DNA of 64,000 bases, taken from NCBI GenBank assembly GCA_963665525.1, contig OY762280.1:3948084-4012083 (forward strand), read 5' to 3'. Shown in pieces: positions 5,709 through 58,113 of this stretch (its first letter is position 1; each line of letters begins with the position of its first letter). Source of the DNA: Bacteroidales bacterium. Lineage in GTDB: Bacteria > Bacteroidota > Bacteroidia > Bacteroidales > UBA12077. The notes beneath the pieces were generated by a model. It did no database searches, was not told where the DNA came from, and saw nothing but the letters and a program-made list of their open reading frames with translations. Made by a program: the position numbers and the translations under genes.

Positions 5709-6314
5709 ATGATCAAAGAACATATCGTAAAGAAACAAAAAGCAATAAAACATAAAATTGTAAATATTGCATCCAACGTTTTTAGTAAATTCGGATTTAA
5801 AAAAGCAACCATGGAAGACATTGCTTATGCTGCAGGAATGGGGAAAAGTTCAATTTATTATTATTTTAAGAGCAAAGAGGAAATCTTTGAAGCGGTTGTA
5901 AAAAAAGAAGCTTATGAGTTAAGTTTAGAGATCGAAAAAAGGGTTGTAAATGTAAATGATAACCCAAAAGAGAAGATTAGGAATTATGTTTTTATTCGAA
6001 TGAAATATCTAAAAGAAATGGTCAACTTTTATGAAACTTTAAAAAATGATTATTTAGCTAACCTTGCTTTTACAGAGCGTATTCGAAAAAAGTATGATAA
6101 AGATGAACAGCAAACCATAAAAACGATTTTAGAAGAAGGTGTTAACCAAGGAATATTTAATTTAAATAATACAAAACTTGCTTCTACTGCTTTGGTAACA
6201 TTTTTAAAAGGTTTGGAGACTACAATGCTTATTGATGAAGAGTTGGACTTAAAGGGTTTAGAAAAAAACCTGGATGATATTTTGCAGATTTTATTTTATG
6301 GAATGATAAAATAA
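5709..6314 (+). CDS. TetR/AcrR family transcriptional regulator
   Basis: It has an N-terminal TetR HTH (FGFKKATMEDIAYAAGMGKSSIYYYFKSKEEIF) and sits directly upstream of an RND efflux operon. Confidence 0.85.
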   Translation: MIKEHIVKKQKAIKHKIVNIASNVFSKFGFKKATMEDIAYAAGMGKSSIYYYFKSKEEIFEAVVKKEAYELSLEIEKRVVNVNDNPKEKIRNYVFIRMKYLKEMVNFYETLKNDYLANLAFTERIRKKYDKDEQQTIKTILEEGVNQGIFNLNNTKLASTALVTFLKGLETTMLIDEELDLKGLEKNLDDILQILFYGMIK

Positions 6315-36861: not shown

Positions 36862-37242
36862 ATGAAAGTAAAGAAGTATTTAGTTTGGATGATGATGGTT
36901 CTTGCAGTTGCTATTGTAGCTTGTGAAGATGATGAACCAACCGAATCTTGCGATAGCGAAGATTTGTCTGCTGATTTTCAATGCCCTGAAGATGTTGATG
37001 CAATAGCTACTTTTTGTAGTGATGGTACAAATAGATCATACTATACTTTTGGTGGTACCGATTATTATTGTACAGGAGTGGAGGCATCAACTTGCGACGC
37101 TGCTTTAAATACGATAAGTAATTTATTACTTGAGGCAGGATGTAGTTCAAAAAAGAAATCAATGGAGGCTGGACTAATTAAGTTAACTACTATGGCAGAA
37201 AACTTGCTCGAAGAAGTGAGAACAGGTTCTGTTTGTGAGTAG
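36862..37242 (+). CDS. Cys-rich acidic lipoprotein, unknown function
   Basis: The lipobox AIVAC is followed by EDDEPTE. The mature part has eight further Cys. I recognise no family. Confidence 0.55.
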   Translation: MKVKKYLVWMMMVLAVAIVACEDDEPTESCDSEDLSADFQCPEDVDAIATFCSDGTNRSYYTFGGTDYYCTGVEASTCDAALNTISNLLLEAGCSSKKKSMEAGLIKLTTMAENLLEEVRTGSVCE

Positions 37243-42752: not shown

Positions 42753-43802
42753 TTATGTGGTTTTAATTAATTTATCGAAATACATTGCAAACGAGCGATA
42801 TAAAAAGTGAGTCCATTTACCAAACGGAACTATTATTACAGCCCACTGTACAAGAACTATTAAATGGAATAAATACATCCAAAGGTTGTTTTCGATAATA
42901 TTTAAATCGATAAAAACTCTTACAATAAATGCTGTTAATCCCATTAAGAATAGCCAGATTACAAAAAACCAGTCCGATGGTTGTGAGAACTTGTTTACTT
43001 CTCTGTTTTTTCTAATTCTTCCAATCATAAATATGAATGTAATTGCAAAAATTGCAATACTTTCAATATATCCTAAAAGAATAATAAACATGTTTTCTGT
43101 CCCAAACCAATCTAGAACAACGGTAGTAAAAAGTAAAGCCAGATAACCAAATACAAGTATCATATGCATTAGCCAACGTCTATAACTATCGTCGCAACCC
43201 AAAGTTCGCTTTTGAGTAAACATATGAATAAACAGTTCTTTGGCTGTTAACAGATAGGTTTTAAATTTTACTTTTTTGCCTGGTTTTAATATTACAAACC
43301 ACCACATTCGTGCTAAGTTAGGAATAAGTATAACTGCAAAAACAGCAGCAATAGCAAGCATTTCGAATGTATGTCCAAAGTGCATAATTGCTTCGGTATT
43401 AAAATTTAGTTTAAAACTAAACCAAATAACTGCGATAGCAGTAGCAATAAATGCAAACAGACTAAAAAATAATGATTTGTATAATAGACCCGATAAACCG
43501 GTCCAGTCGTATTTTGCAGTAAGCCATCTTCTTAACGACATCATTAATTCGCCAGGATTAGCTTCTCGCGGACAAGTACTTGCACAATCGCCGCAATAAT
43601 AACATAACCAAGGATCTAATGATGATGTAATTTTCTGATCTAACCCAAGAACACTGGCACGCACCATTTTTCGTGGGAAAGAATTGTCTTTATCAGATAA
43701 GCTGCATACAGCAGTACAATTCCCGCAATTATAACACGCATTAAAATCGTTGTTACCGTATTTGAAGATTTCTTTTGCAAATTTAGGATTTATTCTTGCC
43801 AT
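42753..43802 (-). CDS. QmoC-like subunit: HdrC-type 2x[4Fe-4S] domain fused to a 6-TM cytochrome-b-like (HdrE/NarI-type) membrane domain
   Basis: It has two ferredoxin-type motifs (CYNCGNCTAVC and CYYCGDCASTCP). About six hydrophobic helices follow, carrying candidate haem-ligand His residues (HFGH, MHMIL, FHLIV, WTHF). Confidence 0.8.
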   Translation of the reverse strand: MARINPKFAKEIFKYGNNDFNACYNCGNCTAVCSLSDKDNSFPRKMVRASVLGLDQKITSSLDPWLCYYCGDCASTCPREANPGELMMSLRRWLTAKYDWTGLSGLLYKSLFFSLFAFIATAIAVIWFSFKLNFNTEAIMHFGHTFEMLAIAAVFAVILIPNLARMWWFVILKPGKKVKFKTYLLTAKELFIHMFTQKRTLGCDDSYRRWLMHMILVFGYLALLFTTVVLDWFGTENMFIILLGYIESIAIFAITFIFMIGRIRKNREVNKFSQPSDWFFVIWLFLMGLTAFIVRVFIDLNIIENNLWMYLFHLIVLVQWAVIIVPFGKWTHFLYRSFAMYFDKLIKTT

Positions 43803-43807
43803 ATGAT

Positions 43808-44086
43808 TTACTTTTTCAATTTGTAAAAATAGTATTCATCCATATCATCAATTTCCCCGGTTTCAATACTTCCGTATTTTTGCAAAGTCATTAAATGATA
43901 GGTGACTATATCAAAAGGAATACCTGTTTCTTTAGCAATTTGAGGAATGGTTTTATCTTCCGCTTCGAGAGCTTTCAGGATTTGTTTTTTTATCCTGTTA
44001 AACTCTTTCATTTTTTCTTTTACTTCATCGGAAACTTTCCTCGTTTTCTTAATAATGTCTATTGTTTTTTCCATAATATCTTGCAT
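43808..44086 (-). CDS. Small winged-helix DNA-binding-like protein (Cys-free)
   Basis: 92 aa. The pattern RIKKQILKALEAEDKTIPQIAKETGIPFDIVTYHLMTLQKYGSIE looks like an ArsR/MarR-type wHTH. The gene lies 2 nt and 5 nt from its neighbours inside the operon. Confidence 0.55.
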   Translation of the reverse strand: MQDIMEKTIDIIKKTRKVSDEVKEKMKEFNRIKKQILKALEAEDKTIPQIAKETGIPFDIVTYHLMTLQKYGSIETGEIDDMDEYYFYKLKK

Positions 44087-44088
44087 TA

Positions 44089-46023
44089 TTAATCAATTAA
44101 AGCTTCAATCATACTTTCCATTTCTTTGTCTGTGTATCCAATTAAGTCAATTGCATTTTCAGGACAAACAGGTAAGCACATTCCGCATCCTTTACATAAT
44201 GATTTATTTACAACAGCAACCTCTTTACCATCGGTTGTAGTTTTTGAAATAGCATCGTACGGACAAGCGTTAGAGCAGTTATCACACCACGAACATTTAT
44301 CGTTATGAATAACGGCCATGGTTGGTTCAAGTTCAATTTCGCCTAAGCTAACCAAAGAGTTTGCTTTAGATGCAGCCGATAGTGCCGATTTTACCGATTC
44401 GGTAATATTTAAAGGAGCCTGACAAGCACCTGAAATTAATACTCCATCGATAACGGTTTCTACAGGACGTAGCTTAGGATGTATTTCGTTAAAGAATTTA
44501 TCTCTACCAACAGGAACTTTAAGTAAGTTAACAATGCCTTCGTATTCTCTAGGAACCATTCCGGTTACTAAAACAACTAAATCAGCATTAATTTCTACTT
44601 CTTCGTTGTCGGTTAAAATATCTTTAATTTTAACTATAGTTTCGTTGCCAACATATTGAACTTCCGGAGGAGAATCTTCGAAAGATTGTAAGAAAATATC
44701 GCCAGCTTCGGATGCTTGATGATAAAGTTTCTCTTGCTTTCCGTAAGTTCTTATTCCACGGTTAAAATGGAAGTTATTAATGTTTGGATATTTTTCTTTA
44801 ACAAGAATCGCGGTATGAATTGCTGATGTACAGCAATAACGCGAGCAATATTTATTAGGCCCATCAACCTGACGACTACCAACACAATAGATGTAAGCTA
44901 TATTTTTAACTTCTTGATGATTGTATAATAATTTATCATTATTAAGTTCAATTAATCGCTTAAATTGCTGAAGTGTAATTACATTACTTACCTCATGGTA
45001 TCCAAATTCGCCTTTTTCAGGTTCATAAGGGTTAAATCCGGTACAAAGCTGAATAGCTCCAACAGTAATTTCTGTTTCGGTTTCAGTTTGTTCAAGATCA
45101 ATATCATCGCATATGGCCACACATTCGCCACATTTAGTACAAGCTTTATAATCAATTGCAGGAATTTCAGGAAACTCACTACAGTAGTTTTTAAAAATAG
45201 CTTTACGTTTTGTGATGTTAAAATTGAAATCGTCATCAACCTCAACAGGGCATACTTCAATAGCTTTTTGGAACTTCTCTTTATCAAGTTTGCAATCGGG
45301 TTTAATATAGCGTGGAATAGTTTTTAATTTAAGACTATATTCTCCAACACTACCTTTTTTCTCAGCAATTTCGGTTCCGGTATAAAGCGTAATTTTTGGA
45401 TGAGAAATAATTTCATTGTATAAACGAGATACTACTTCTTGTCCGGTTTCATTAGTTGTAAACAATACGTTCCATTGAGAGGTACGACCACCAACAAAAT
45501 GTTCGCGCTCAATTAAATGAACAGTCGTTCCCATTTCGGCAAGTTCCAAAGCAGCACGCATTCCTGCAATACCAGCACCAACAACAGCAATGGCATTTTG
45601 CGATGGAATTTTAACAGGAGTAAGTTCTTTTGAATATTTTACTCTTTCAATTCCTCCCTGAACTAATTTTATGGCCTTTTCGGTTGCCATTGGGGCATTA
45701 TCGGAATGTGCCCAGGAGCCTTGTTCACGGATATTAACCTGAACGTAATTGTAAGGATTTAACCCGGCGCGTATCGCTACATTTCTAAATGTAAACAAGT
45801 GTAATTTTGGAGAACAAGATGCAACAACTATAGCATCCAAACTTTGTTCTTTGATATCGTTAGCAATTTCTTGTTGTGTGGAATCGGCACAGGCAAACAT
45901 GGTTGTTTTTGCCAGTGTAACTCCTTCAACTTTTGCGGCAGCTTCTTTTACTTTTTCAACATCTACATAGTCGGAAATATTCGAGCCGCACATGCATACA
46001 TATACTCCAATTTTATTTTTCAT
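44089..46023 (-). CDS. HdrA-like FAD/FeS oxidoreductase (QmoB-like but lacking the MvhD domain)
   Basis: It has an N-terminal CMCG motif, the dinucleotide fold VVGAGIAGMRAALELAE, the HdrA signature CVGSRQ...YCSRYCC and a C-terminal 2x4Fe-4S (CSWCDNCSNACP, CKGCGMCLPVCP). It overlaps the upstream gene by 11 nt. Confidence 0.85.
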   Translation of the reverse strand: MKNKIGVYVCMCGSNISDYVDVEKVKEAAAKVEGVTLAKTTMFACADSTQQEIANDIKEQSLDAIVVASCSPKLHLFTFRNVAIRAGLNPYNYVQVNIREQGSWAHSDNAPMATEKAIKLVQGGIERVKYSKELTPVKIPSQNAIAVVGAGIAGMRAALELAEMGTTVHLIEREHFVGGRTSQWNVLFTTNETGQEVVSRLYNEIISHPKITLYTGTEIAEKKGSVGEYSLKLKTIPRYIKPDCKLDKEKFQKAIEVCPVEVDDDFNFNITKRKAIFKNYCSEFPEIPAIDYKACTKCGECVAICDDIDLEQTETETEITVGAIQLCTGFNPYEPEKGEFGYHEVSNVITLQQFKRLIELNNDKLLYNHQEVKNIAYIYCVGSRQVDGPNKYCSRYCCTSAIHTAILVKEKYPNINNFHFNRGIRTYGKQEKLYHQASEAGDIFLQSFEDSPPEVQYVGNETIVKIKDILTDNEEVEINADLVVLVTGMVPREYEGIVNLLKVPVGRDKFFNEIHPKLRPVETVIDGVLISGACQAPLNITESVKSALSAASKANSLVSLGEIELEPTMAVIHNDKCSWCDNCSNACPYDAISKTTTDGKEVAVVNKSLCKGCGMCLPVCPENAIDLIGYTDKEMESMIEALID

Positions 46024-47311
46024 GAGTACCTCCTCTCAAGTAGCCTGCAGTTTCTGAGGAAGCTGCTCCGGCCGATAATATTGAATCTGGGATATCCATT
46101 GGCCCTGATGCTGTTCCTGCTACATAAACCCCATCAATATTGGTTTGTGCAGGGTTGGCAAGTAAATCTCTTTGTTGAACATAATTAAATTGATCTAACT
46201 CAAGATTGTTGTTAAACATTGATTTAACACCATCGTTGGCTAAAATACCAGTCGATAAAACAACCATATCGTGATTCGCTTCTTTAACAGTTCCACTTTC
46301 AATATCCTCGTATCTTAACTTAAGGTCTCCATCTTCAATTTCTTCTATTTTACCAATCTTACCTTTAATAAAGCTTACACCCATATCTTTTGCTTGTTGG
46401 TAAAACTCGTTAAATCCTTTACCAAACGACCGTATGTGTAAGTAATAAATTGTGATATCGGCCATAGGTAATGCTCCCATTAAAAGCTGGGCTTGCTTAA
46501 TTGAATACATACAGCAAACTTGTGAACATATTGGATTTCCAACAGTTTCGTCGCGCGAACCAGCACATAATACATAAGCAATATTGTCGGGCATTTTACC
46601 ATCTTTAGGTCTTAGAACAGTATTGTATGGACGTGTTGGAACTAGCTGACGTTCCATTTGCATGGCTGTAAGTACATTTTTGAATTTTCCAAAACCGTAT
46701 CTTGGAATATTTTCTGCATCGAATAGTTTATATCCGGTTGCAATAATTACCGATTTTGCCTGAATAGCTATGTCTTGCTTTTCTTGAGTAAAATCGATAC
46801 AGTTTGCAGGGCAGGCTTTTTCACATGCTCCGCATAAGCTACAGTTTTCAATATCTATTGCAGCAACCCTGGGATTGGCAATACTAAAAGGTACATAAAC
46901 AGCTTTACGGCCAACTAAATCCCATTGATATTGGTCTTTTACCACTACAGGGCATTTGTCTTCGCAAATCTGGCATCCTGTGCATGATTCTTCATCAACA
47001 TAGCGTGGATACTTGGTTAAGGTAGCGCGAAAATCAAATTCAGACTTTTTATCAATATTACTTACCTGGCTGTTGGTATAAATAGTTATATTTGGATGTC
47101 TTGCTGTTTCGGATACTTTAGGTGTTGTAATACATGCAGAACAATCTAATGTTGGAAAAACCTTACTTAAGTGGATCATTTTACCACCCAGGGATAAGTC
47201 TTTTTCAACAATAATGACTTTATAACCTTGGTTTGCAAGGTTAAGAGCTGCTTCTTCTCCAGAAATTCCTCCACCAATAACAAGAACATCGTATTCTTCT
47301 GATTTTGTCAT
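46013..47311 (-). CDS. HdrA-like FAD/FeS oxidoreductase (QmoA-like)
   Basis: It has VLVIGGGISGEEAAL, FPTLDCSACITTPK and CAGSRDE...CSQVCCMY, matching HdrA signatures, plus two inserted ferredoxin motifs (CTGCQICEDKCP, CSLCGACEKACP). Confidence 0.9.
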   Translation of the reverse strand: MTKSEEYDVLVIGGGISGEEAALNLANQGYKVIIVEKDLSLGGKMIHLSKVFPTLDCSACITTPKVSETARHPNITIYTNSQVSNIDKKSEFDFRATLTKYPRYVDEESCTGCQICEDKCPVVVKDQYQWDLVGRKAVYVPFSIANPRVAAIDIENCSLCGACEKACPANCIDFTQEKQDIAIQAKSVIIATGYKLFDAENIPRYGFGKFKNVLTAMQMERQLVPTRPYNTVLRPKDGKMPDNIAYVLCAGSRDETVGNPICSQVCCMYSIKQAQLLMGALPMADITIYYLHIRSFGKGFNEFYQQAKDMGVSFIKGKIGKIEEIEDGDLKLRYEDIESGTVKEANHDMVVLSTGILANDGVKSMFNNNLELDQFNYVQQRDLLANPAQTNIDGVYVAGTASGPMDIPDSILSAGAASSETAGYLRGGTHEK

Positions 47312-47327
47312 ATTGAGTAATTTTTAG

Positions 47328-47729
47328 TTAATTCTCCGAAGCTTTAGATAATTGCTCATGAAATGTTTTCATGTGCTTTACAAAAGCTTCTGCACAAACG
47401 GAACATATAGCAGCCATTTTTAATCGGGCAGGATCCATATTTTTTTCTTTCATGATAGCATGAGTCGCTTGCACTATTTTTGATGTTTTTTCAGAACAAG
47501 TATCGCTATAAGGACAGTCGGTTCCGTCAGCAGCAATAAAAACACCATCGAATCCTTTTTCGAAAGCATGTAAAATCCATTGTGGTTTTACCGAGCTAGA
47601 ACAAGGAACATTAACAGTATAAACTGTTGCAGGATAATGTTTTTTAAGGAGCCCCGCCATATCGATCGCGGGGTCCGAAATTTTCTCAGTTGAAAAAACC
47701 AGAATCTTTGGATTCTTTAATTTTTCCAT
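47328..47729 (-). CDS. MvhD/FlpD-like iron-sulfur protein (hydrogenase delta-subunit family)
   Basis: 133 aa. The layout ILVFST...VPCSS...FDGVFIAADGTDCPYSDTC...AICSVCAEAF is typical of MvhD-type [2Fe-2S] proteins that partner HdrA. Confidence 0.8.
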   Translation of the reverse strand: MEKLKNPKILVFSTEKISDPAIDMAGLLKKHYPATVYTVNVPCSSSVKPQWILHAFEKGFDGVFIAADGTDCPYSDTCSEKTSKIVQATHAIMKEKNMDPARLKMAAICSVCAEAFVKHMKTFHEQLSKASEN

Positions 47730-47732
47730 CGT

Positions 47733-47984
47733 TTATCCTTTCTTCATGTAAATTTTGAAGTATCCTGACTCTTCTACTGTACCTAAGTAGTCGTGGCCTT
47801 TTTTAGCAGCCCACTTAGGGATATCTTTTTTAGTTCCTTCGTCGGCAGAAAGAACTTCCATAATTTGACCTGAAGTTATTTCGCCAATTGCTTTTTTAGC
47901 AGCTAAAAGTGGTCCTGGACATGCTGTTCCTCTTGCGTCGACTGATTTGTCAACATTTAATGCTTGTAATTCTTCTGTTGTCAT
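47733..47984 (-). CDS. TusA-family sulfurtransferase (second copy)
   Basis: 83 aa with the CPxP active-site motif in VDARGTACPGPLLAAKKAI. Confidence 0.9.
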   Translation of the reverse strand: MTTEELQALNVDKSVDARGTACPGPLLAAKKAIGEITSGQIMEVLSADEGTKKDIPKWAAKKGHDYLGTVEESGYFKIYMKKG

Positions 47985-48004
47985 AACTATATCTCCTTTA
48001 AATT

Positions 48005-48418
48005 TTAAATAAATAAATTAACGTCTGTTTCTTGAATAGACTCAATGTATTCTCCAATTCCACAAATGTCATCAACCACATCAATGAAATCTTCGATTTT
48101 TTCTCCACCGGCAATTTTACCTGCTAAACTGCAGATATGGATTTTTACTTCGGTCATTTCTTTTGCCATTTCGAAAAACTCAATCCACGATGGTGTTGAT
48201 AAGCTTTCGAGAGCAGCTTTAAATTCGTCGGGTGTTTGAACATCTTCGCTCATATTTGATATATCGGCAGCTTTACTTTTTAAGAATGCATGACCTGCAT
48301 TTACCAGAACAAATAAATCTACTTCCATATCGTCGGCAGCAGCACCACTTAAAATAACGCCAACACTTGTTAATTTATCGATGCTTGATGTGCTCAAACC
48401 TATTGTCATTTTTGCCAT
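48005..48418 (-). CDS. DsrE/DsrF-like sulfur-relay family protein
   Basis: 137 aa with an alpha/beta pattern (VGVILSGAAADD...DLFVLVNAGHAF...KIHICSLAG) typical of the DsrE_2/COG2210-type relatives of DsrE. The candidate active Cys is in HICS. Confidence 0.75.
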   Translation of the reverse strand: MAKMTIGLSTSSIDKLTSVGVILSGAAADDMEVDLFVLVNAGHAFLKSKAADISNMSEDVQTPDEFKAALESLSTPSWIEFFEMAKEMTEVKIHICSLAGKIAGGEKIEDFIDVVDDICGIGEYIESIQETDVNLFI

Positions 48419-48958: not shown

Positions 48959-49765
48959 TTATAATTTCCATTCGTTGTATGCTCCGTCGTAAACTTTTAC
49001 GTTAGGATACTCAAGAACTGAAGTTAATGCAAGATATACTATCCCGGCTCTTACGCTGGTTGCACAGTAAAGAATAATTTCTTTGTCTTTGGTAATACCT
49101 GCACCATTAAATAATGCTTGTAAATCTTCTTTTGATTTAAGTTTACCGCCATCGGCTAAAACATTTTTATACTCTAAGTGCTTAGCACCTTCGATGTATC
49201 CTTCTGCCCATTCTGTATCGTCTCTAACATCAACAAGAATAGCCGACTTTAATTTAGATTTTACATAAGCTTTATCGGCAAAGATTTTAGCATTTACTTT
49301 AGGAGTAAATGTTACAGCAGCTTTTTTTGTTGCAGCATTTGTAACTGGACCTCTTGCGGTTCTCCATGCTTGCATATGACCATCCATAACTTTCACATCG
49401 TTGAATCCTAAATATTTTAGAATCCAGTATAAACGGCCTGCACCTTTATTTGAACCTGTATCGTAAATGATGATTTTTTTAGCTGGATCAATTCCTTTTT
49501 CTCCTAAGATAGTAGCTAGTTCAGCTGGAGATTTAAGAATTCCTTTAGGATCAGTTGTGCTTGCTAAGTCGTTAATGTTCACATTAACCGCATTTCTGAT
49601 ATGCACTTTTGCATAATCGGCTGGAGTTCTAGTAGATACAATAACAGCATCTTTGCTATTCACTAATTTCTTAGCTTCGGCAGCAGAAATTAAATCCTGA
49701 GCAAAAGAAAGATTTGCGAATATAGCTACTAATAAAAGACTAAATAATATGTTTTTTAATTTCAT
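48959..49765 (-). CDS. Secreted two-domain rhodanese (thiosulfate sulfurtransferase type)
   Basis: It has a signal peptide (LSFA|QD). The N-domain loop IYDTGSNKGAGR is inactive (Asp in place of Cys). The C-domain loop LYCATSVRAG is active. Confidence 0.9.
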   Translation of the reverse strand: MKLKNILFSLLLVAIFANLSFAQDLISAAEAKKLVNSKDAVIVSTRTPADYAKVHIRNAVNVNINDLASTTDPKGILKSPAELATILGEKGIDPAKKIIIYDTGSNKGAGRLYWILKYLGFNDVKVMDGHMQAWRTARGPVTNAATKKAAVTFTPKVNAKIFADKAYVKSKLKSAILVDVRDDTEWAEGYIEGAKHLEYKNVLADGGKLKSKEDLQALFNGAGITKDKEIILYCATSVRAGIVYLALTSVLEYPNVKVYDGAYNEWKL

Positions 49766-49776
49766 AATTTCGTTTA

Positions 49777-50823
49777 TTAAAATTTAACCTGAACTTGCAA
49801 TACAACCTGATCGTTAGGAATTTCTAAAGCTTGTTCTGCTTTGTATCTGTAATTTAATTGAACACGTGTCCAATCGTTTAAGAAATAGTTTAATCCAAAT
49901 GTCATGATTGTTTCAGAGTTGTCGTCGATATCTACGTCAGAATCAAAGCATTCAAATTTGAATACTGGTTGTAAATTCCATCTTGTAGTATACATTGCCT
50001 GTGCAAAATAACCGCTACGAGTTACACCACCAGTATGATATTCGATTGGTGTACCATCGCAACCACCACCAGTTGTGTAATCGCCAGTATCATCGGCCCA
50101 AAGATATTCTGCCTGAAATAAGAAATTTCCGGTTTTTATTTGTACTTCGCCACCTAAACGAGTTTTCTCGTTATCTTCTTCGGCACCTGTTTTACCATAG
50201 GCAAAACTACCGCCTACCTGAAGAAAATCAACAGGAGCAAATGTTAATCTTCCTTTTATACTTTTAGCTTTGTTTTCATCTTCGAAACCTTTTTCATAAT
50301 CATTCATTAAAGCTAAATAGTAGTTGATTTTAGAGTCGAGAAGACTACCAAAAACCATAGCTCCCATATCGCGTTGCGGACCTGCTAGTTCGTCAACAGC
50401 TTTTGAACGATAGATAGTATGAAGAGACTGACAAGGTGTGTTTTGCTCTAAACTTAATGGCGATTTAAACTGACCAAAGCTTATTTTGGCAAAATCGTAT
50501 CGTGAATAAGTCACAAATGCATCTAGTAACCATGGCGATCCTGATTTGAATCGAGAGAAATCAACCATGAAGAAATAACTTACATCGTAAGGAATATTTC
50601 CAACTGCAGCTATTCTTGCACGGTTAAAGGTAAAGCTGTTAGCATCTTTACCATCGGTAGTTTGATAATATTCCCACTGTGGCTGAATGTAACCTTTAAT
50701 GCTTACTCCTTCGTCGGAAGAAGCTTCCATACATCCTTGTGCAGAAACAAGCTGTGTAGATGTTAATACCACAAGAATTGAGAGGCTAAATATTGATAAT
50801 ATCTTTTTAATCATTTTTTTCAT
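49777..50823 (-). CDS. Outer-membrane porin, phosphate-selective porin O/P-like family
   Basis: It has a signal peptide (LVSA|QG), an N-terminal FTFNRARIAAVGNI block like the porin O/P family, a beta-strand periodicity and the C-terminal ...VLQVQVKF. Confidence 0.75.
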   Translation of the reverse strand: MKKMIKKILSIFSLSILVVLTSTQLVSAQGCMEASSDEGVSIKGYIQPQWEYYQTTDGKDANSFTFNRARIAAVGNIPYDVSYFFMVDFSRFKSGSPWLLDAFVTYSRYDFAKISFGQFKSPLSLEQNTPCQSLHTIYRSKAVDELAGPQRDMGAMVFGSLLDSKINYYLALMNDYEKGFEDENKAKSIKGRLTFAPVDFLQVGGSFAYGKTGAEEDNEKTRLGGEVQIKTGNFLFQAEYLWADDTGDYTTGGGCDGTPIEYHTGGVTRSGYFAQAMYTTRWNLQPVFKFECFDSDVDIDDNSETIMTFGLNYFLNDWTRVQLNYRYKAEQALEIPNDQVVLQVQVKF

Positions 50824-50832
50824 ATTTTTAAT

Positions 50833-50866
50833 TAAAAAATAAGCTAAGTAGCTTTTGCTACCCAGC
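50833..50866 (-). terminator. Intra-operon terminator/attenuator-like hairpin (minus strand)
   Basis: The minus-strand RNA reads gcugggtagc-aaaa-gcuacuuagc, a 10-bp stem with two G-U pairs, followed by uuauuuuuu. On the plus strand the same positions would be A-C mismatches. Confidence 0.45.
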
Positions 50867-50877
50867 TTAAATATTTT

Positions 50878-51843
50878 TTATTCTAATGGTAAGTCAGTAA
50901 TTGCTGTAGCATCCCACTTGTGTGAAGTAAGATTATCATAAATCATACTATTAACACCATTTTTTAAACTGTGTGGAGTATAACCTAATACATATAAATA
51001 AGCTGTTACCATTGAAGAAGTTTGTCCTGTCCAGCAATATGTTACCACATCTTTTGATGGATCAAGATACATATATTCTCCACCAGCTAATGTTAAAGGC
51101 TTAATTCGGTATGCACCAGAAATGTGTCCGTAAGTTGTAACATCAGCCGCATCCCAGAAATTATTTACATAGTAACTTCCTGGACTAGCTAATACGTCAG
51201 ACCCAGCAACACCTTGGAAACCAGCTGTTAATAATGCAGTAACTCTTGCGGCAAGAATTTCAGCACCTGTTCCTGTAGTTGTAATATCAGGATCGTCGAA
51301 TTGAGTAGTTTGAGTACTTACAGCACCAGGAGCAGCAATCCAGTTAGGGCTATCAATTGTATTACATGAACCACTCCATGAGTCAAGGCTGGTATGCCAT
51401 CCACTCATTCCCCATTTTAATACTTTGGCATCAGTATAACCGCTTAAACGTAAAGCAACGGTTCCATGTCCTGCTCCTTGTCCGCTATAACAAACAACAA
51501 TAATTGGTTTTCCGGCAGCATTACCTGCTTCGGTAACAATATTACCTAAAGTTGAATTTACTGCTCCAGGAATATGACTTGTGTTATATGCGTCAGAAGA
51601 TCTGATATCAATTATATAATAAGAGCTTAGGTTATCTTTTATAGCATCAGCAGTAGTGATCCAGTCAGTTAGTATATTATCCAAATCCAAATCGTTAGCT
51701 ACTAAGTACTCTTTTAGAATCTGAAATTCAGTGTCGGTTTGACGGTCTGGAGTTGCATCGTCATCACTGTCGTCTTTACAAGATGTTAAAACAAATGCAG
51801 GAATAATTAAAATTAATAATGCGTACTTTAAAAACTTTTTCAT
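50878..51843 (-). CDS. Lipoprotein with two rhodanese-like domains and an acidic post-Cys tract
   Basis: The lipobox VLTSC is followed by KDDSDDDATPD. Two rhodanese modules carry the loops VVCYSGQGAGHG and TYCWTGQTSS. I chose the ATG at 51843, because the longer ORF overlaps the upstream gene. Confidence 0.8.
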   Translation of the reverse strand: MKKFLKYALLILIIPAFVLTSCKDDSDDDATPDRQTDTEFQILKEYLVANDLDLDNILTDWITTADAIKDNLSSYYIIDIRSSDAYNTSHIPGAVNSTLGNIVTEAGNAAGKPIIVVCYSGQGAGHGTVALRLSGYTDAKVLKWGMSGWHTSLDSWSGSCNTIDSPNWIAAPGAVSTQTTQFDDPDITTTGTGAEILAARVTALLTAGFQGVAGSDVLASPGSYYVNNFWDAADVTTYGHISGAYRIKPLTLAGGEYMYLDPSKDVVTYCWTGQTSSMVTAYLYVLGYTPHSLKNGVNSMIYDNLTSHKWDATAITDLPLE

Positions 51844-52381: not shown

Positions 52382-53596
52382 TTAAAAAGCACTGAATTTT
52401 CCTGTGCGTTCATTCCACTTAACAAATACATACCATATTAGTATTACTACAAGAACTAGAATAAAAGCTCCAGCATAGCCTAAATAGTCAGGCAAATAAT
52501 TTTTGAACTTCATTGTATGAGGGAGTGCATCAACGATTGCAGGAACAATATATTTTTTAGAAATAGGGGATACAAGTAAGAATCCTAATGCAGCCATCCA
52601 TAATTTAACCTGCCCTTCGCCTACACGCCAAAGTGTTCCAACGGCACATCCTCCGGCAACAGTCATTCCTAATCCAAAAATAAATCCTCCTAAAAGACCA
52701 CGTAACCAGAAATGTCCAAAAACCCAGGTCATTTCACGAGCACGAATAGTAGCATCGCCTGCACCAATACCAAAATATTTAATGGCAGTGAAACCTATTA
52801 ATGTAATAACTAAACCGGCCATTACTCCAACAGAACCATCGCTTTCGCCTGTCATAAAAGGATCGCGGAATGCTTTAACGATACAAAAGCGTGATCGTTG
52901 GCAAATGAGTCCCATTAATAATCCTGAAATTATAAACCAGGCTAATACGCCATTGGTTCCGGCAACTCTATATGCAAGAACAAAAGTTCCGATAGAAACG
53001 ATCCATCCTAACCAGATTTGCCATTTTCCTGTTTTTTCTGATGCAGCAAGGAAAGTAAAACTTTTACCTGTGCTAAAAGAAGGGAACTTTTCCATTTCCC
53101 AAAGCAAGTATTTAAGAGCAATTATAGTACCAGCAAAAAGTCCTATAGTAAAAATAATTGCTCCACCTGATAATGCTGGGACACCCGAGAAAAATGAACC
53201 AATTGTACAACCTAATCCCAGAGTTGCTCCAATAGCCATTAATGCACCTCCAATAAATCCTTTTATTAATTCTCCTTTAGGAGGTATTCGTAAGGCAAAT
53301 TCTTTTGAGAAGAGAGCTCCGGCAAATGATCCTAAAACCAGTATCAGGCAAAGCATACCATAAAGACTGGTACTTGTAGGTGCAGCATTTTCAAAAGCAG
53401 AAATACCCAGGAGCTTAAAAATATTCTCACCCCAGTTATTAATACCACCACTAGCACCCCAAGGACTTTTTACGGTAAATAGTAAAATGTTTAGTAGTCC
53501 CAGAGTAACACCACCAACCCATACTGGCCAGTGTTTGGCGAAAAAAATATTAAATAATTCGCGAAGTATTCCTGGCTCTTTTTGTTGATCAGCCAT
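52382..53596 (-). CDS. YeeE/YedE-family sulfur-compound (thiosulfate-type) transporter
   Basis: 404 aa and polytopic. It has the repeated Cys-containing motifs LGLGCTIGSFFSG, GLICQRSRFC and VAGGCAVGTLWRVGEG that are characteristic of YeeE/YedE. Confidence 0.9.
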   Translation of the reverse strand: MADQQKEPGILRELFNIFFAKHWPVWVGGVTLGLLNILLFTVKSPWGASGGINNWGENIFKLLGISAFENAAPTSTSLYGMLCLILVLGSFAGALFSKEFALRIPPKGELIKGFIGGALMAIGATLGLGCTIGSFFSGVPALSGGAIIFTIGLFAGTIIALKYLLWEMEKFPSFSTGKSFTFLAASEKTGKWQIWLGWIVSIGTFVLAYRVAGTNGVLAWFIISGLLMGLICQRSRFCIVKAFRDPFMTGESDGSVGVMAGLVITLIGFTAIKYFGIGAGDATIRAREMTWVFGHFWLRGLLGGFIFGLGMTVAGGCAVGTLWRVGEGQVKLWMAALGFLLVSPISKKYIVPAIVDALPHTMKFKNYLPDYLGYAGAFILVLVVILIWYVFVKWNERTGKFSAF

Positions 53597-53605
53597 TTTT
53601 ACCTC

Positions 53606-53836
53606 CTACTTTTTTTGTATTAGAAACCTGAAAACACCATTTTCAACTTCACCTTCTTCAAGTAAAGCGTTTCCTGTTTTTTCACACCATTTTGGTAGGT
53701 CTGATTTTGTTCCAGGATCGGTTCCTAACATTTCAAGCACATCTCCAGAACCTAATCCTTTAATTGCTTTTGCCAGTTTCATCATTGGCATAGGACATGA
53801 AAGCCCTTTTACGTCTAATGTTTCTTTAATTTCCAT
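53606..53836 (-). CDS. TusA-family sulfurtransferase (first copy, paired with YeeE)
   Basis: 76 aa with the motif LDVKGLSCPMPMMKLAKAI (CPxP). It lies 9 nt upstream of the YeeE gene. Confidence 0.9.
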   Translation of the reverse strand: MEIKETLDVKGLSCPMPMMKLAKAIKGLGSGDVLEMLGTDPGTKSDLPKWCEKTGNALLEEGEVENGVFRFLIQKK

Positions 53837-54025: not shown

Positions 54026-54721
54026 ATGGAAAAGATATCTGCTTTAAATAGTTGTACAGTAAGCAATGCAAAATGTATTTGTTTTGATTTATTGACGCCA
54101 GAACAAAGAGAATTGATTGAAAAAAATTCGATTGATGTTCGATATAAGAAAGGTGAAGTAATTTGTAAACATGGTACTTTTGCTCCACATGTTATTCTAC
54201 TTAAAGAGGGCTTGGCAAAAATTTATTTAGAGGGTTTAAATGATTCCTTAATCTTAAAAATAATTACTTCGGGTAATTTAATTGGGTTAACTTCTGTTAT
54301 GGAAGATAATAATGTGTTTCATTATTCAGCATCGGCATATGTTGATTCTTCTGCCAGCTTAATAGATATCAATATCTTTAGAAAAATTCTTAAAGAAAAT
54401 GCCGAATTTGCAAATTCGGTAATAAATATTTTATGTGAAAATTCCTTACAAACTTTCGGAAGATTTTTCTGCTTAACACATAAACAACTATATGGTAGAA
54501 TGGCAGATATTATCTTATGTTTATCTGAAAGAATCTTTAAAGAAAAAAGTTTTGTTTTAAATCTTACAAGAAAAGAGCTGGCTGAATTAACAGGGATGTC
54601 AACGGAAAGCGTTATACGAATGCTTAAGAAATTTAAAGATGACGGAATAATAGAACTGCAAGGAAAGGAAGTCGTTATTTCAAATTATGATTTATTGCGT
54701 AAGATTAGCGAATATGGATAA
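54026..54721 (+). CDS. Crp/Fnr-family transcriptional regulator
   Basis: It has a cNMP-binding-like beta-barrel and a C-terminal HTH (TRKELAELTGMSTESVIRMLKKF). The N-terminus carries the Cys residues CTVSNAKCIC. Confidence 0.9.
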   Translation: MEKISALNSCTVSNAKCICFDLLTPEQRELIEKNSIDVRYKKGEVICKHGTFAPHVILLKEGLAKIYLEGLNDSLILKIITSGNLIGLTSVMEDNNVFHYSASAYVDSSASLIDINIFRKILKENAEFANSVINILCENSLQTFGRFFCLTHKQLYGRMADIILCLSERIFKEKSFVLNLTRKELAELTGMSTESVIRMLKKFKDDGIIELQGKEVVISNYDLLRKISEYG

Positions 54722-54724
54722 TAT

Positions 54725-55417
54725 CTATCCATTTTTACTTATCTCTTTTAGTAGTTCCAGGTTTAAGATCTTTATTTTTTTACCCTTTAGCTGAATAATT
54801 TTTTCATCATTAAATTCTGATAATATTCGGGCAACACTTTCAATGGCCATTCCGGAAAGCTCGGCTAAATCTTTTCGATTAACATATGAAAATACATCAA
54901 TTGATTTAAACTCTTCTCTGTTTAAGTATAATAATACATTAGCTAATTTTCCATTTAATTGTTTTAAACCAAGGTTTAAACATTTGGTTAACATAATATT
55001 GTAGTTTTTACAATACCAACTTGCTAATTCGCGAGAAAAATCGCAGCTCATAGAGATTAAGTCTTTAATGGCATTTTGATTAATTGCACATACTTTTGTT
55101 TCAGTAATTGCAGCTGCTGAGAAATAATAGGAATCGTCGCCGTATAAAGAGGTTAATCCAATAAAATCATGCGGTTTTAGTAGTTTGATGATAATATTTT
55201 TACCGGGACCTTCGATGTATACTTTTACTAATCCATTAAGAACATATAAAATATCAGATACACGTGTGCCTTCTTTAATTATTGTTTCTCCTTTGTTATA
55301 TGTAACATGGGTTTTGACTAGATTATTAAACTCATCAATTATTTCAATATCCTGGATAAAACATTCCGATTTTCTGTTGCAATCTGTACAGTTAGTTTTT
55401 ATTAAATATCTGTCCAT
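54725..55417 (-). CDS. Crp/Fnr-family transcriptional regulator (paralog, convergent)
   Basis: It has the same architecture, with the HTH NRKDLAELSGMAIESVARILSEF and the N-terminal Cys cluster CTDCNRKSEC. Confidence 0.9.
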   Translation of the reverse strand: MDRYLIKTNCTDCNRKSECFIQDIEIIDEFNNLVKTHVTYNKGETIIKEGTRVSDILYVLNGLVKVYIEGPGKNIIIKLLKPHDFIGLTSLYGDDSYYFSAAAITETKVCAINQNAIKDLISMSCDFSRELASWYCKNYNIMLTKCLNLGLKQLNGKLANVLLYLNREEFKSIDVFSYVNRKDLAELSGMAIESVARILSEFNDEKIIQLKGKKIKILNLELLKEISKNG

Positions 55418-56835: not shown

Positions 56836-58113
56836 ATGAAAATAAAAATATTTTTGGTACTGATATTCCTAATTAATATCAGTTTATCTTATGCACAGTC
56901 CGAAGGTGAATTGGCAACACGTATCGATTCTTTAGAGTTTCAATTAAAACAACTGCAAAATAAAATTGAGAAGAAAGAAAAGAAAGATGAATTAAAAGAG
57001 CTGATGGACAGGGCAAAGCATCTTTCATCACAAGAGAAAAAAGAGAGTAGTGATATTTCTAAAAAATTCCATAGTGGTATACGTCAACAACAAGGATTAA
57101 ATCCAAACATTAGTGTTAGTGGCGATTTTTTTACTTCGTACAGCACAGCCGAAAATGATATTATTAATGAACCAAGTGAGTTTTCATATGGAAATAATAA
57201 TTTTTATATGCGAGAACTTGAGTTGGCTTTAGTGGCACCACTCGATCCGTTTACTCGTGGAAAAACATTCTTAAGCATTACTGATGAAGGTCTTGAGTTA
57301 GAAGAAGCTTATATGGAGTTAATAAACCTGCCATTAAATATGAATTTAAAAGCAGGTATTTTTCATGCAGAGTATGGATTATTAAACAGATATCATCCTC
57401 ATGCTTTACCTCAGTTCGATAAACCAAAGGCTTTGATGTATCATTTTGGAGAAGGAGGATTAGGAGGTGCAGGTTTAGCAGTTAATTTTATGTTTCCAAA
57501 ACCTATTTTAGCTGATGCCAGCTCGTTCGATTTTACTGTTGTTGATGGAGGCAATGGAATGAGCTATACTACCGACCGAGATATTAATCTGCTTTATATT
57601 GGTAATTTTAAAAACTATTATGATATTAACGATGATAGTTACTTCGAATTTACCTTAGCTGGTGTAACAGGACAAAATGATAGTACTGGAAATTATAATT
57701 CTCATATTGGAAGTTTAGGTTTGCACTACAAATGGTCTCCGGTAGGCAGATCAAAGTACAGAACATTCGACTGGAAAACGGAGTTTATTTATGGATATCA
57801 CGAGGGAGCTTTAAAAGATATAGAAACTTTTGGTTGTTATACATCGCTTCAAAATAAATTGAATGCACGATTTTGGATTAGTGGTAGAGTAGGATACACA
57901 GAACTTCCTTATAATAAATCTGAATACGAAATCGACTATTCTATTTGTTTGGACTTCTGGCAAAGTGAATTTGTGTTTTTCCGATTTCAATATCAATATA
58001 ACGACAGGCATATTGATAATATGATGGGCTATATGGGAAAAATGCCAAGCGATCATGTATTTACATTACATGTTAACTGGGCTATGGGACCACATAAACA
58101 TGAGGCATATTAA
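56836..58113 (+). CDS. Putative outer-membrane beta-barrel/porin with N-terminal coiled coil
   Basis: It has a signal peptide (SYA|QS), a Lys/Glu coiled-coil segment, a beta-strand-rich body and an aromatic C-terminal residue. Confidence 0.6.
   Translation: MKIKIFLVLIFLINISLSYAQSEGELATRIDSLEFQLKQLQNKIEKKEKKDELKELMDRAKHLSSQEKKESSDISKKFHSGIRQQQGLNPNISVSGDFFTSYSTAENDIINEPSEFSYGNNNFYMRELELALVAPLDPFTRGKTFLSITDEGLELEEAYMELINLPLNMNLKAGIFHAEYGLLNRYHPHALPQFDKPKALMYHFGEGGLGGAGLAVNFMFPKPILADASSFDFTVVDGGNGMSYTTDRDINLLYIGNFKNYYDINDDSYFEFTLAGVTGQNDSTGNYNSHIGSLGLHYKWSPVGRSKYRTFDWKTEFIYGYHEGALKDIETFGCYTSLQNKLNARFWISGRVGYTELPYNKSEYEIDYSICLDFWQSEFVFFRFQYQYNDRHIDNMMGYMGKMPSDHVFTLHVNWAMGPHKHEAY

Follow-up and report, generated by a model that had tools for sequence, protein, structure and literature searches.

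A conserved pair of tandem-rhodanese lipoprotein and three-cysteine porin as a candidate outer-membrane front end of sulfur uptake in Bacteroidales

How polysulfide crosses the outer membrane was called 'unclear' in the 2026 MccSep paper (PMC13510729), and outer-membrane sulfurtransferases or porins for thiosulfate were 'yet to be identified' according to a 2026 proteomics paper (PMC13490349). The same question is raised by two adjacent genes in 64,000 nucleotides (nt) of DNA from a Bacteroidales bacterium (contig OY762280.1, positions 3,948,084 to 4,012,083 of the forward strand; this whole stretch is called the window, and its first letter is position 1). One gene encodes a lipoprotein of 321 amino acids (aa) with two rhodanese domains, here named Rhd321, and the other a porin. 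A sequence-only reading of the window had suggested that the lipoprotein is exposed on the cell surface and mobilises extracellular sulfur compounds together with the porin. Does the locus encode such a system? The two genes were found to be conserved as a pair, and the porin has three invariant cysteine positions, one of which alternates with an in-frame TGA codon. That a surface rhodanese and this porin together make up the outer-membrane front end of sulfane-sulfur uptake is a reading to which we give an even chance of being correct.

The pair has the following features, where loops 3 and 6 of the porin are L3 and L6 and A1 is an alignment of 34 sequences of the Rhd321 family:

50878-51843, minus strand: 321-aa tandem-rhodanese lipoprotein (Rhd321), operon gene 4; Pfam Rhodanese twice, 83 bits
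51757-51843, minus strand: signal peptide, lipobox LTS-C22 and acidic tract K23-D-D-S-D-D-D29 of Rhd321, a candidate lipoprotein export signal
51469-51492, minus strand: Rhd321 active-site loop 1, C118-YSGQGAG; C118 invariant in A1
51013-51036, minus strand: Rhd321 active-site loop 2, C270-WTGQTSS; C270, W271, T272, G273, S276 and S277 invariant in A1
49777-50823, minus strand: 348-aa OprO/P-type 16-strand porin of a three-cysteine ('CCC') subfamily, operon gene 5; Pfam Porin_O_P
50731-50733, minus strand: porin C31, at position 3 after the predicted signal-peptide cleavage (…VSA/QGC…), in a low-confidence N-terminal arm
50431-50433, minus strand: porin C131 in the constriction loop L3, aligned to S125 of OprO/OprP, a central phosphate-site residue
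50059-50070, minus strand: porin G252-G-G-C255 at the tip of L6, predicted to be extracellular from the strand order of the AlphaFold2 (AF2) model

The lipoprotein and its pairing with the porin gene

Rhd321 starts with the ATG at 51843 and has the N-terminus MKKFLKYALLILIIPAFVLTS-C22-KDDSDDDATPD, which confirms the cysteine predicted to be lipidated and the residues after it as they had been described from the sequence. A longer open reading frame (ORF) with a TTG start was rejected, since it overlaps the upstream gene and its start is unused by the homologues. The …PAFVLTS-C22 lipobox is that of a bacterial lipoprotein, with predicted lipidation of a cysteine whose column is invariant in A1. 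The two rhodanese modules with a cysteine in each loop, also described earlier, are both present (VVC118YSGQGAG and YC270WTGQTSS), and C118 and C270 are invariant in A1. The match to PF00581 reaches 83 bits over two stretches, as compared to a gathering score of 22.2, which places Rhd321 with the active-type rhodanese domains.

The AF2 model of Rhd321 has a mean predicted local distance difference test score (pLDDT) of 92.6 and shows two α/β domains, and its matches in the PDB are rhodaneses. Residues 23-27 have a pLDDT below 50, and the first helix begins at residue 38. When the whole chain was compared to classical tandem rhodaneses, the template modelling (TM) score was only about 0.3 and the root-mean-square deviation about 15 Å; the packing of the domains is different. 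With this score, and with a cysteine in both domains, Rhd321 was rejected as a classical tandem thiosulfate sulfurtransferase of the bovine TST/RhdA/SseA type. Many genomes have four-rhodanese versions of the large lipoprotein, about 630 aa long and the result of a tandem duplication, in which all active-site cysteines are kept. Such versions were located, in loci fetched for comparison and labelled with L and a number, at:

L053:10411-12288: four-rhodanese lipoprotein
L022:4579-6507: four-rhodanese lipoprotein
L031:9971-11860: four-rhodanese lipoprotein
L048:9986-11881: four-rhodanese lipoprotein
L059:6858-8810: four-rhodanese lipoprotein

The lipoprotein export signal of Capnocytophaga is K-(D/E)2 or Q-A-(D/E)2 and is sufficient to bring a periplasmic lipoprotein to the surface, and the variants SDDDD and SDDFE, from Bacteroides and Flavobacterium, are functional as export signals as well (PMC5080379). 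B. thetaiotaomicron uses S(D/E)3 as its signal, or CS(D/E)2 according to the mutagenesis of SusG (PMC6222051). The C-K-D-D-S-D-D-D of Rhd321 fits the published Bacteroidota signal K-(D/E)2 (PMC5080379, PMC6222051), and on this point the sequence-only reading was right. Most of the best 120 relatives in the database start with CKDD…, CSDD… or CKEE…. An acidic pair (D/E) at positions +2 to +4 after the cysteine was found in 55% of 77 Rhd321-type proteins, which on average have 2.2 acidic residues in +2 to +6. As a control we used the small rhodanese lipoproteins encoded in the same operon, of 158 aa (Rhd158) and 167 aa (Rhd167), through their homologues with a detectable lipobox from the same loci as the Rhd321 relatives. 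Not one of them has an acidic pair after the lipobox cysteine (0/42 of the Rhd158 type and 0/14 of the Rhd167 type). This contrast, 55% as compared to 0/56, suggests that the destination of Rhd321 is different from that of the small lipoproteins, and judging from the signal it is likely that Rhd321 is displayed on the cell surface.

For the 167-aa GGCGG protein, the start C20-VQKDN and the SGGCGG end were as described earlier, but its location had been left open, which overstated the doubt, as none of the 14 homologues has an acidic pair. The absence of this pair from all Rhd167- and Rhd158-type homologues, and a family start of CVKKDNTVY, argues for an orientation towards the periplasm. Among the lipoprotein-like ORFs of the window listed by one scan, which itself missed Rhd321, the only other comparably acidic start is the C-EDDEPTE of a predicted 126-aa lipoprotein (36862-37242, plus strand). 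The isoelectric point was uninformative on surface location: it is 4.3-4.7 for all the lipoproteins and the porin, and only Rhd268, the secreted rhodanese encoded after the porin, is basic.

The search for Rhd321 homologues listed at least 1178, of which the best 120 are full-length, 52-75% identical and mostly from metagenome-assembled genomes (MAGs) of Bacteroidales; when each species was represented by a single genome, 340 species genomes were found to encode a relative. Neighbourhoods were counted in 80 fetched loci, where the operon proteins of the window were compared with the translated ORFs. In every locus whose downstream DNA covers 400 nt or more (74/74), a porin gene lies immediately downstream of the Rhd321 homologue and on the same strand. 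The gap between the two genes in the window is 54 nt. In L032 and L037 the pair is on the strand opposite to the other sulfur genes, and lipoprotein and porin are therefore a two-gene unit. The pairing has not arisen by chance; the two genes are an obligate conserved pair. The gene after the porin encodes an Rhd268-type rhodanese, the third member of the core module, in 58 of 67 loci, and a small rhodanese with a GGC tail is found directly upstream of the Rhd321 homologue in 37 of 75. The remainder of the window operon is facultative, with YeeE in 26 and HdrA-like genes in 20 of the 80 loci.

Among the cultured carriers are Marinifilum species, Draconibacterium orientale and Ancylomarina longa; the Labilibaculum carrier is a MAG. 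Members of the families are named 'porin', 'phosphate-selective porin', 'rhodanese-like domain-containing protein' or 'hypothetical' in the database, and NCBIfam has no model specific for the lipoprotein family or the porin family. Full-text literature searches gave no description of a Cys/Sec porin (Sec, selenocysteine), of GGCGG-tailed rhodaneses or of a family of rhodanese and phosphate-selective porin.

Porin fold, invariant cysteines and in-frame TGA codons

The earlier assignment of the second gene to a porin O/P-like β-barrel was borne out by profile and structure. The protein, which in the database is called from M4 (50814) onwards, matches Pfam Porin_O_P (PF07396) with 54.3 bits (cut-off 20.9), and the family profile finds OprO with an E value of 5e-10. 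Its AF2 model (pLDDT 86.5) has 16 strands and a 30-residue L3, with short turns and long loops at opposite ends of the barrel, and the closest solved structures are OprP (2o4v) and OprO (4rjw), with TM scores of 0.73-0.74 at 17-18% identity. The hidden Markov model score above the gathering score, together with a modelled 16-strand barrel with L3 constriction, puts the porin in the OprO/OprP structural family. A Sus-like or BtuB/BtuG-type system was rejected, as there is no TonB_dep_Rec or Plug match by Pfam and the strands are 16, not 22.

To compare the pores, the porin was aligned to OprO, numbered via the chain of the F62Y/D114Y mutant. Here R68 corresponds to the ladder residue R60, R70 to position 62, K120 to D114 and C131 to S125. 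Further changes from OprO to the porin are K121 to Leu, S124 to Ala/Pro, K126 to Gln and R59 to Asn. The central phosphate site of OprP consists of D94, Y62, S124, S125, K121, K126, R34 and R133 (PMC5877670). A phosphate-specific porin in the OprP sense was rejected, since this site is not conserved and only R60 is kept among the mapped residues (D94, R34 and R133 were unmapped). Phosphate-uptake genes were never found around the porin in the loci examined. The residue mapping suggests that the pore is probably still anion-selective, with the phosphate site replaced and a thiol at the constriction, and Arg and Lys are conserved in the porin alignment A2 (43 sequences). Thus, of the 'anion-porin-like channel' claimed earlier, the relationship to OprO/P stood, but a plain anion channel does not account for three invariant cysteines, one of them alternating with a probable selenocysteine.

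C31, C131 and position 255 (Cys or in-frame TGA) are present in all 72 neighbourhood porins. Among the matches of a profile search of 1.84 billion representatives, only those of the top-scoring subfamily combine all three cysteines; in the relatives ranked next, the C131 column is occupied by Ser (37 cases), Asp or Pro, and the other two cysteines are absent. The QGC motif around C31 was found in 42 of the 43 A2 sequences, and the last one is truncated at its N-terminus. C255 is part of an invariant GGG-C-(G/D)-G motif. This motif is situated at the tip of loop 6, which has 20 residues, and the alternation of long loops and short turns in the model places the tip outside the cell. A lipidated porin, with QG-C31 as lipobox, seems unlikely, as the residues at -3 and -1 fit cleavage by signal peptidase I before the Gln. 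The predicted mature N-termini of both the porin (…VSA/QGC, 50737-50739) and Rhd268 (…SFA/QDL, 49697-49699) begin with Gln. Such a start is the 'Q-rule' of signal peptidase I substrates in Bacteroidota.

Position 255 is Cys in 64 of the 72 porins, the window protein among them, and TGA in the other eight. In these eight species the porin reading frame is broken by a single stop, which is always TGA and is situated exactly at the C255 column. The tail cysteine codon of the small rhodanese is also TGA in three of the same loci:

L027:11899-11901, L028:11820-11822, L040:5674-5676, L048:12688-12690: TGA at porin position 255 (aligned to 50059-50061 of the window)
L054:11800-11802, L066:5831-5833, L075:11760-11762, L077:11859-11861: the same TGA in the other four loci
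L028:9796-9804, L040:3834-3842, L066:3922-3930: TGA in the tails of small rhodaneses

The eight porins come from Delongbacteria, Cloacimonadota and two Bacteroidales lineages. The segments after the TGA match the window porin with 41-58% identity up to the C-terminal end of the barrel. Several porin representatives in the database end with …GG or …GGG exactly before the C255 column, and these may be read as gene calls that stopped at a Sec codon. In the rhodanese tails a single further codon separates the TGA from a genuine stop codon: L028 reads …GG-TGA-GGC-TAG, and both L040 and L066 read …GG-TGA-GAT-stop. Both candidate selenoproteins, the TGA porin and the TGA-tailed rhodanese, are split or truncated by current gene callers.

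In the four loci from Delongbacteria and Cloacimonadota, a 5-bp hairpin with the loop AG(G/U)U is found 11-13 nt after the porin UGA. Three of its five pairs have compensatory double changes among the four sequences, which was matched by 3 of 500 shuffles and in no slid register. In the remaining four TGA loci the hairpins are less clear. A hairpin with an AGUU loop, the same loop as in the porin, also follows the rhodanese-tail TGA in L040 and L066. The covariation was used as evidence for a selenocysteine insertion sequence (SECIS) because the Rfam SECIS models gave no match, either at gathering thresholds in seven TGA loci or in a permissive search of the L040 TGA. Minimum free energy z-scores of the 60 nt after each porin TGA were not significant, and hairpins of this kind are too short for such a test. 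Judging from the codons and the sequences around them, it is probable that position 255 is selenocysteine in the eight species. Alternation of Cys and Sec is typical of catalytic nucleophiles and redox residues rather than of structural residues.

The operon and its two kinds of back-end

The pair is part of a run of 14 genes on the minus strand, from 53836 down to 42753. As they share the strand and every intergenic gap is at most 54 nt, we infer a single operon. The genes around Rhd321 and the porin (genes 4 and 5, listed above), together with a divergent regulator gene, are:

53606-53836, minus strand: gene 1, TusA; Pfam TusA, 86.7 bits
52382-53596, minus strand: gene 2, YeeE/YedE-family inner-membrane sulfur transporter; Pfam Sulf_transp, 178.7 bits
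51879-52355, minus strand: gene 3, 158-aa rhodanese lipoprotein (Rhd158) with catalytic C109 and the C-terminal tail SGGC156GG
48959-49765, minus strand: gene 6, secreted classical tandem rhodanese of 268 aa (Rhd268); Pfam Rhodanese, 134.8 bits
48444-48947, minus strand: gene 7, 167-aa rhodanese-fold lipoprotein (Rhd167) with Gly for the catalytic Cys and the tail SGGC165GG
42753-48418, minus strand: genes 8-14, cytoplasmic back-end, assigned by Pfam
54026-54721, plus strand: Crp/Fnr-family regulator, divergent from the operon; Pfam cNMP_binding and HTH_Crp_2

The order of genes 8-14 is a DsrE-like protein, a second TusA, MvhD/FlpD, two HdrA-like flavo-iron-sulfur proteins, a small ArsR-type helix-turn-helix protein and a 349-aa iron-sulfur protein. 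The stretch of TusA and transporter (52382-53836) scores below the cut-offs of the TsuA and YedE equivalogs of NCBIfam, and no HdrB/HdrC-type CCG-domain subunit was found by Pfam in the cytoplasmic part of the operon (42753-47729, minus strand). The 349-aa protein is polyferredoxin-like, and the ArsR-type protein (43808-44086) has no cysteine.

A homologue of the Crp/Fnr regulator flanks the rhodanese-porin module in 58 of the 80 loci, which suggests that it is a dedicated regulator of the module, possibly sensing redox state or sulfur. Next to it is a second Crp/Fnr-family regulator gene (54725-55417, minus strand), and the N-termini of both proteins are rich in cysteine (…SCTVSNAKCIC… and …NCTDCNRKSEC…).

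Rhd268 fits the classical tandem type. It has a signal peptide (…SFA/QD), and its single Cys, C234, is in the C-terminal domain. The Rhd158 type keeps the catalytic cysteine in 45 of 47 homologues. In the Rhd167 type the catalytic position is Gly in 12 of 18 and the GGCGG arm is kept, so that Rhd167, as judged from its sequence, looks like a carrier rather than an enzyme. Homologues of the two small proteins always end with GGC, GGCG, GGCGG or GGCGD. In SoxY, the cysteine of a C-terminal GGCGG carries sulfur intermediates covalently on a swinging arm (PMC6067878). Rhd158 and Rhd167 were rejected as SoxY carriers, since their only domain is Rhodanese and no SoxY, SoxZ or other Sox protein was seen in the 14-gene operon.

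Directly upstream of the module, 13 of the 80 loci have genes for an octahaem cytochrome c and a cytochrome b-PAS protein. The same four-gene front end with the cytochrome pair upstream was observed in Marinifilum fragile (L082:5576-8364) and also in L063:7034-9831. The octahaem cytochrome has 534 aa and matches PDB 1SP3 with an E value of 2e-125. We take 1SP3, which the database labels only 'cytochrome c, putative', to be the octahaem tetrathionate reductase of Shewanella. The cytochrome pair is an alternative, periplasmic back-end to the YeeE and Hdr-like genes of the window. Two different reductive back-ends thus share one front end, which suggests uptake of sulfur compounds with S-S bonds (polysulfide or elemental sulfur (S0), thiosulfate, polythionates) in mostly anaerobic organisms.

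A possible sulfur route, its rivals and related systems

What we infer from here on is the orientation of Rhd321, its contact with the porin, the substrate and the covalent steps of the porin. In the reading that we favour, Rhd321 would be anchored by its lipid in the outer membrane, and the K-D-D signal would most likely flip it to the cell surface, where the two rhodanese domains, predicted to be catalytically competent, would hang outside on a disordered tether. There it would take sulfane sulfur, as a cysteine persulfide, from polysulfide, sulfide-solubilised sulfur, thiosulfate or polythionates. The thiol or selenol of porin Cys255/Sec, on the flexible, Gly-rich loop 6, would exchange sulfur with the surface rhodanese, and the sulfur would be fed into and through the positively lined pore. 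Rhd268 and the small GGCGG-tailed rhodanese lipoproteins may then take it over in the periplasm. In this genome it would continue via YeeE/TusA to the cytoplasmic DsrE, TusA and HdrA-like proteins, and in Marinifilum and other genomes it would instead go to the periplasmic octahaem cytochrome that resembles tetrathionate reductase. It is conceivable that the porin is itself a covalent chalcogen carrier, with a relay from the surface persulfide to C/U255, C131, C31 and finally the GGC(U)GG rhodaneses, but this part is doubtful and we propose it tentatively.

The pairing of a surface sulfurtransferase with a porin had been put forward as a non-SusCD route. A TonB-dependent barrel is indeed missing, but the idea is not without precedent, as ExtH/ExtI has been described in Geobacter sulfurreducens, where the gene of a rhodanese lipoprotein lies directly before that of a porin with weak similarity to OprO/P (PMC5877670). 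The extHIJKL… cluster of Geobacter also encodes ExtKL (MccSep), a selenoprotein cytochrome that is the polysulfide reductase of S0 respiration (PMC13510729). ExtH and ExtI are larger, 49 and 45 kDa, and in its description of ExtI PMC5877670 reports no conserved cysteine triad, Sec or surface-export signal. Orthology was rejected on both sides: the porin matches the ExtI model (NF040900, cut-off 150) with 46.6 bits in its N-terminal half only, and to the ExtH model (NF040901, cut-off 200) Rhd321 has no match at E≤0.01 and Rhd268 one of 64.6 bits. The back-end is different too, YeeE/TusA/DsrE/HdrA-like in the window or a homologue of octahaem tetrathionate reductase elsewhere.

Lipoproteins of the proteobacterial type, Geobacter ExtH among them, are generally assumed to be oriented towards the periplasm. 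Rhd321 could likewise be on the inner leaflet, docked under the porin, where it would capture soluble thiosulfate, polysulfide or polythionate that has diffused in. This we consider quite unlikely, even if several points weigh against surface display and in its favour. ExtH/ExtI is a precedent (PMC5877670), and ExtI is reported to influence the localisation of ExtH (PMC5877670; Jahan et al. 2019, reference 58 of PMC13510729), a link that in the latter is given by the title, which names the subcellular localisation of ExtH. The strict acidic pair is missing in 45% of the Rhd321 family, which have weaker starts (CKKD…, CSDK…, CKKS…). Validation of the export signal is limited to Capnocytophaga, Bacteroides and Flavobacterium, and some members of the family belong to phyla beyond that range (Cloacimonadota, Marinimicrobia, Delongbacteria). 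In addition, the other rhodaneses of the operon are all predicted to be periplasmic. The last point can also be turned around, as a fourth periplasmic rhodanese would be redundant beside three others. Moreover, the window protein and its closest relatives have a textbook K-(D/E)2-3 signal, the small rhodanese lipoproteins without acidic pair suggest another destination for Rhd321, and the invariant Cys/Sec of the porin, in a loop modelled as extracellular, needs a partner or substrate on the outside.

As to the porin, it could be a passive, substrate-selective anion channel through which sulfur crosses as a free anion, with cysteines that form a redox gate or are structural. A C31-C131 disulfide could be such a structure, and soluble anions might pass through the pore with no covalent step. 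Porins work by passive diffusion as a default, and the homology to OprO/P, the retained basic pore residues and the conserved Arg/Lys in A2 all agree with it, as does an OprO/P-like porin beside a ttr-type cluster in Dissulfuribacter, for which no thiol chemistry is reported (PMC13490349). The favoured route is further weakened by the low pLDDT of the N-terminal arm that carries C31 (44-58) and of the L6 tip (block mean 63 for residues 251-260), and by the Rfam result for SECIS given above. We nevertheless regard a purely passive channel as unlikely, though a serious candidate. The replacement of C255 by Sec in eight species from at least three lineages is, as general knowledge has it, typical of catalytic redox residues and not of structural ones, and in the same genomes the partner rhodaneses show this Cys/TGA exchange in their GGCGG tails. 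Furthermore, GGGC(G/D)G repeats the carrier-arm motif of SoxY, and the three cysteines come together only in the rhodanese-linked subfamily. The porin probably takes part in the sulfur chemistry.

A selenium module is very improbable. It would serve selenite uptake or detoxification, or deliver selenium to selenoproteins, in the manner of ExtI/ExtH and YedE/YedF, and rhodaneses are able to carry selenium. The operon does resemble selenium-linked YedE/YedF contexts, which is a further point against sulfur uptake. The sole NCBIfam match of the porin is the selenite/tellurite porin ExtI, Rhd268 matches ExtH, and the best match of the transporter is the selenium-linked YedE/FdhT with 136 bits. However, all three scores are far below the curated cut-offs, 150, 200 and 350 bits for ExtI, ExtH and YedE/FdhT, and most carriers have Cys, not Sec. 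The operon contains DsrE, two TusA and HdrA-like/MvhD proteins, the alternative contexts contain a homologue of tetrathionate reductase, and the Geobacter ext cluster is itself now tied to polysulfide respiration (PMC13510729).

The module shares single traits with several other known systems. Like OprP and OprO of P. aeruginosa, the porin has 16 strands, the L3 constriction and the equivalent of R60, but the Gly-rich L6 tip with Cys/Sec and the N-terminal QGC arm are added. With SusD/SusC and BtuG/BtuB the pair has in common the acidic export signal and a lipoprotein gene beside a barrel gene (PMC5080379, PMC6222051, PMC10404256), and, as proposed here, the logic of capture and hand-over. On the other hand, the barrel is a passive porin of 16 strands instead of a TonB-dependent transporter of 22, and the lipoprotein, whose gene comes first, is a rhodanese enzyme rather than a binding lid. 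GGCGG, at the ends of the 158- and 167-aa lipoproteins, and GGGC(G/D)G, in L6 of the porin, recall SoxYZ, but the SoxY/SoxZ fold is absent and the motif is grafted onto rhodanese domains and a porin loop. In a model for Acidithiobacillus and Acidiphilium, the -SH groups of postulated outer-membrane proteins, which were never identified, react with extracellular S0 to -SnH, which is then carried to the periplasm (PMC10045233). The three-cysteine porin has the attributes that this model requires, although the model was made for aerobic, acidophilic sulfur oxidisers and the carriers here are mostly anaerobic Bacteroidota and allied phyla.

For the outer-membrane step of sulfur uptake, the module supplies named candidate genes, residues that can be mutated and cultured hosts. 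If the proposed route is true, capture by a surface lipoprotein and a barrel in Bacteroidota extends beyond TonB-dependent transporters, and two families of secreted selenoproteins would be added, the porin and a rhodanese with a GG-Sec-G/D tail. The three-cysteine relay, if true, would make this the first selenoprotein porin and would identify, at the molecular level, the outer-membrane protein with thiol groups that has long been postulated to mobilise S0 or polysulfide outside the cell. Carriers occur widely in anoxic sediments, digesters and sulfidic waters, and in genome surveys the module could therefore also serve to mark organisms that use sulfur compounds from outside the cell.

Two minor observations were made outside the module. 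A 425-aa ORF (56836-58113, plus strand) has a signal-peptide-like start and no Pfam match and may be an uncharacterised outer-membrane protein; it lies just upstream of ZnuA/ABC-3 metal-transport genes, annotations that were taken from the same genomic region in L001. In L054, from a Bacteroidales MAG, a match to the Rfam small RNA family Acido-Lenti-1 (6252-6306, minus strand; 43 bits, gathering score 37) was found a few kb upstream of the module.

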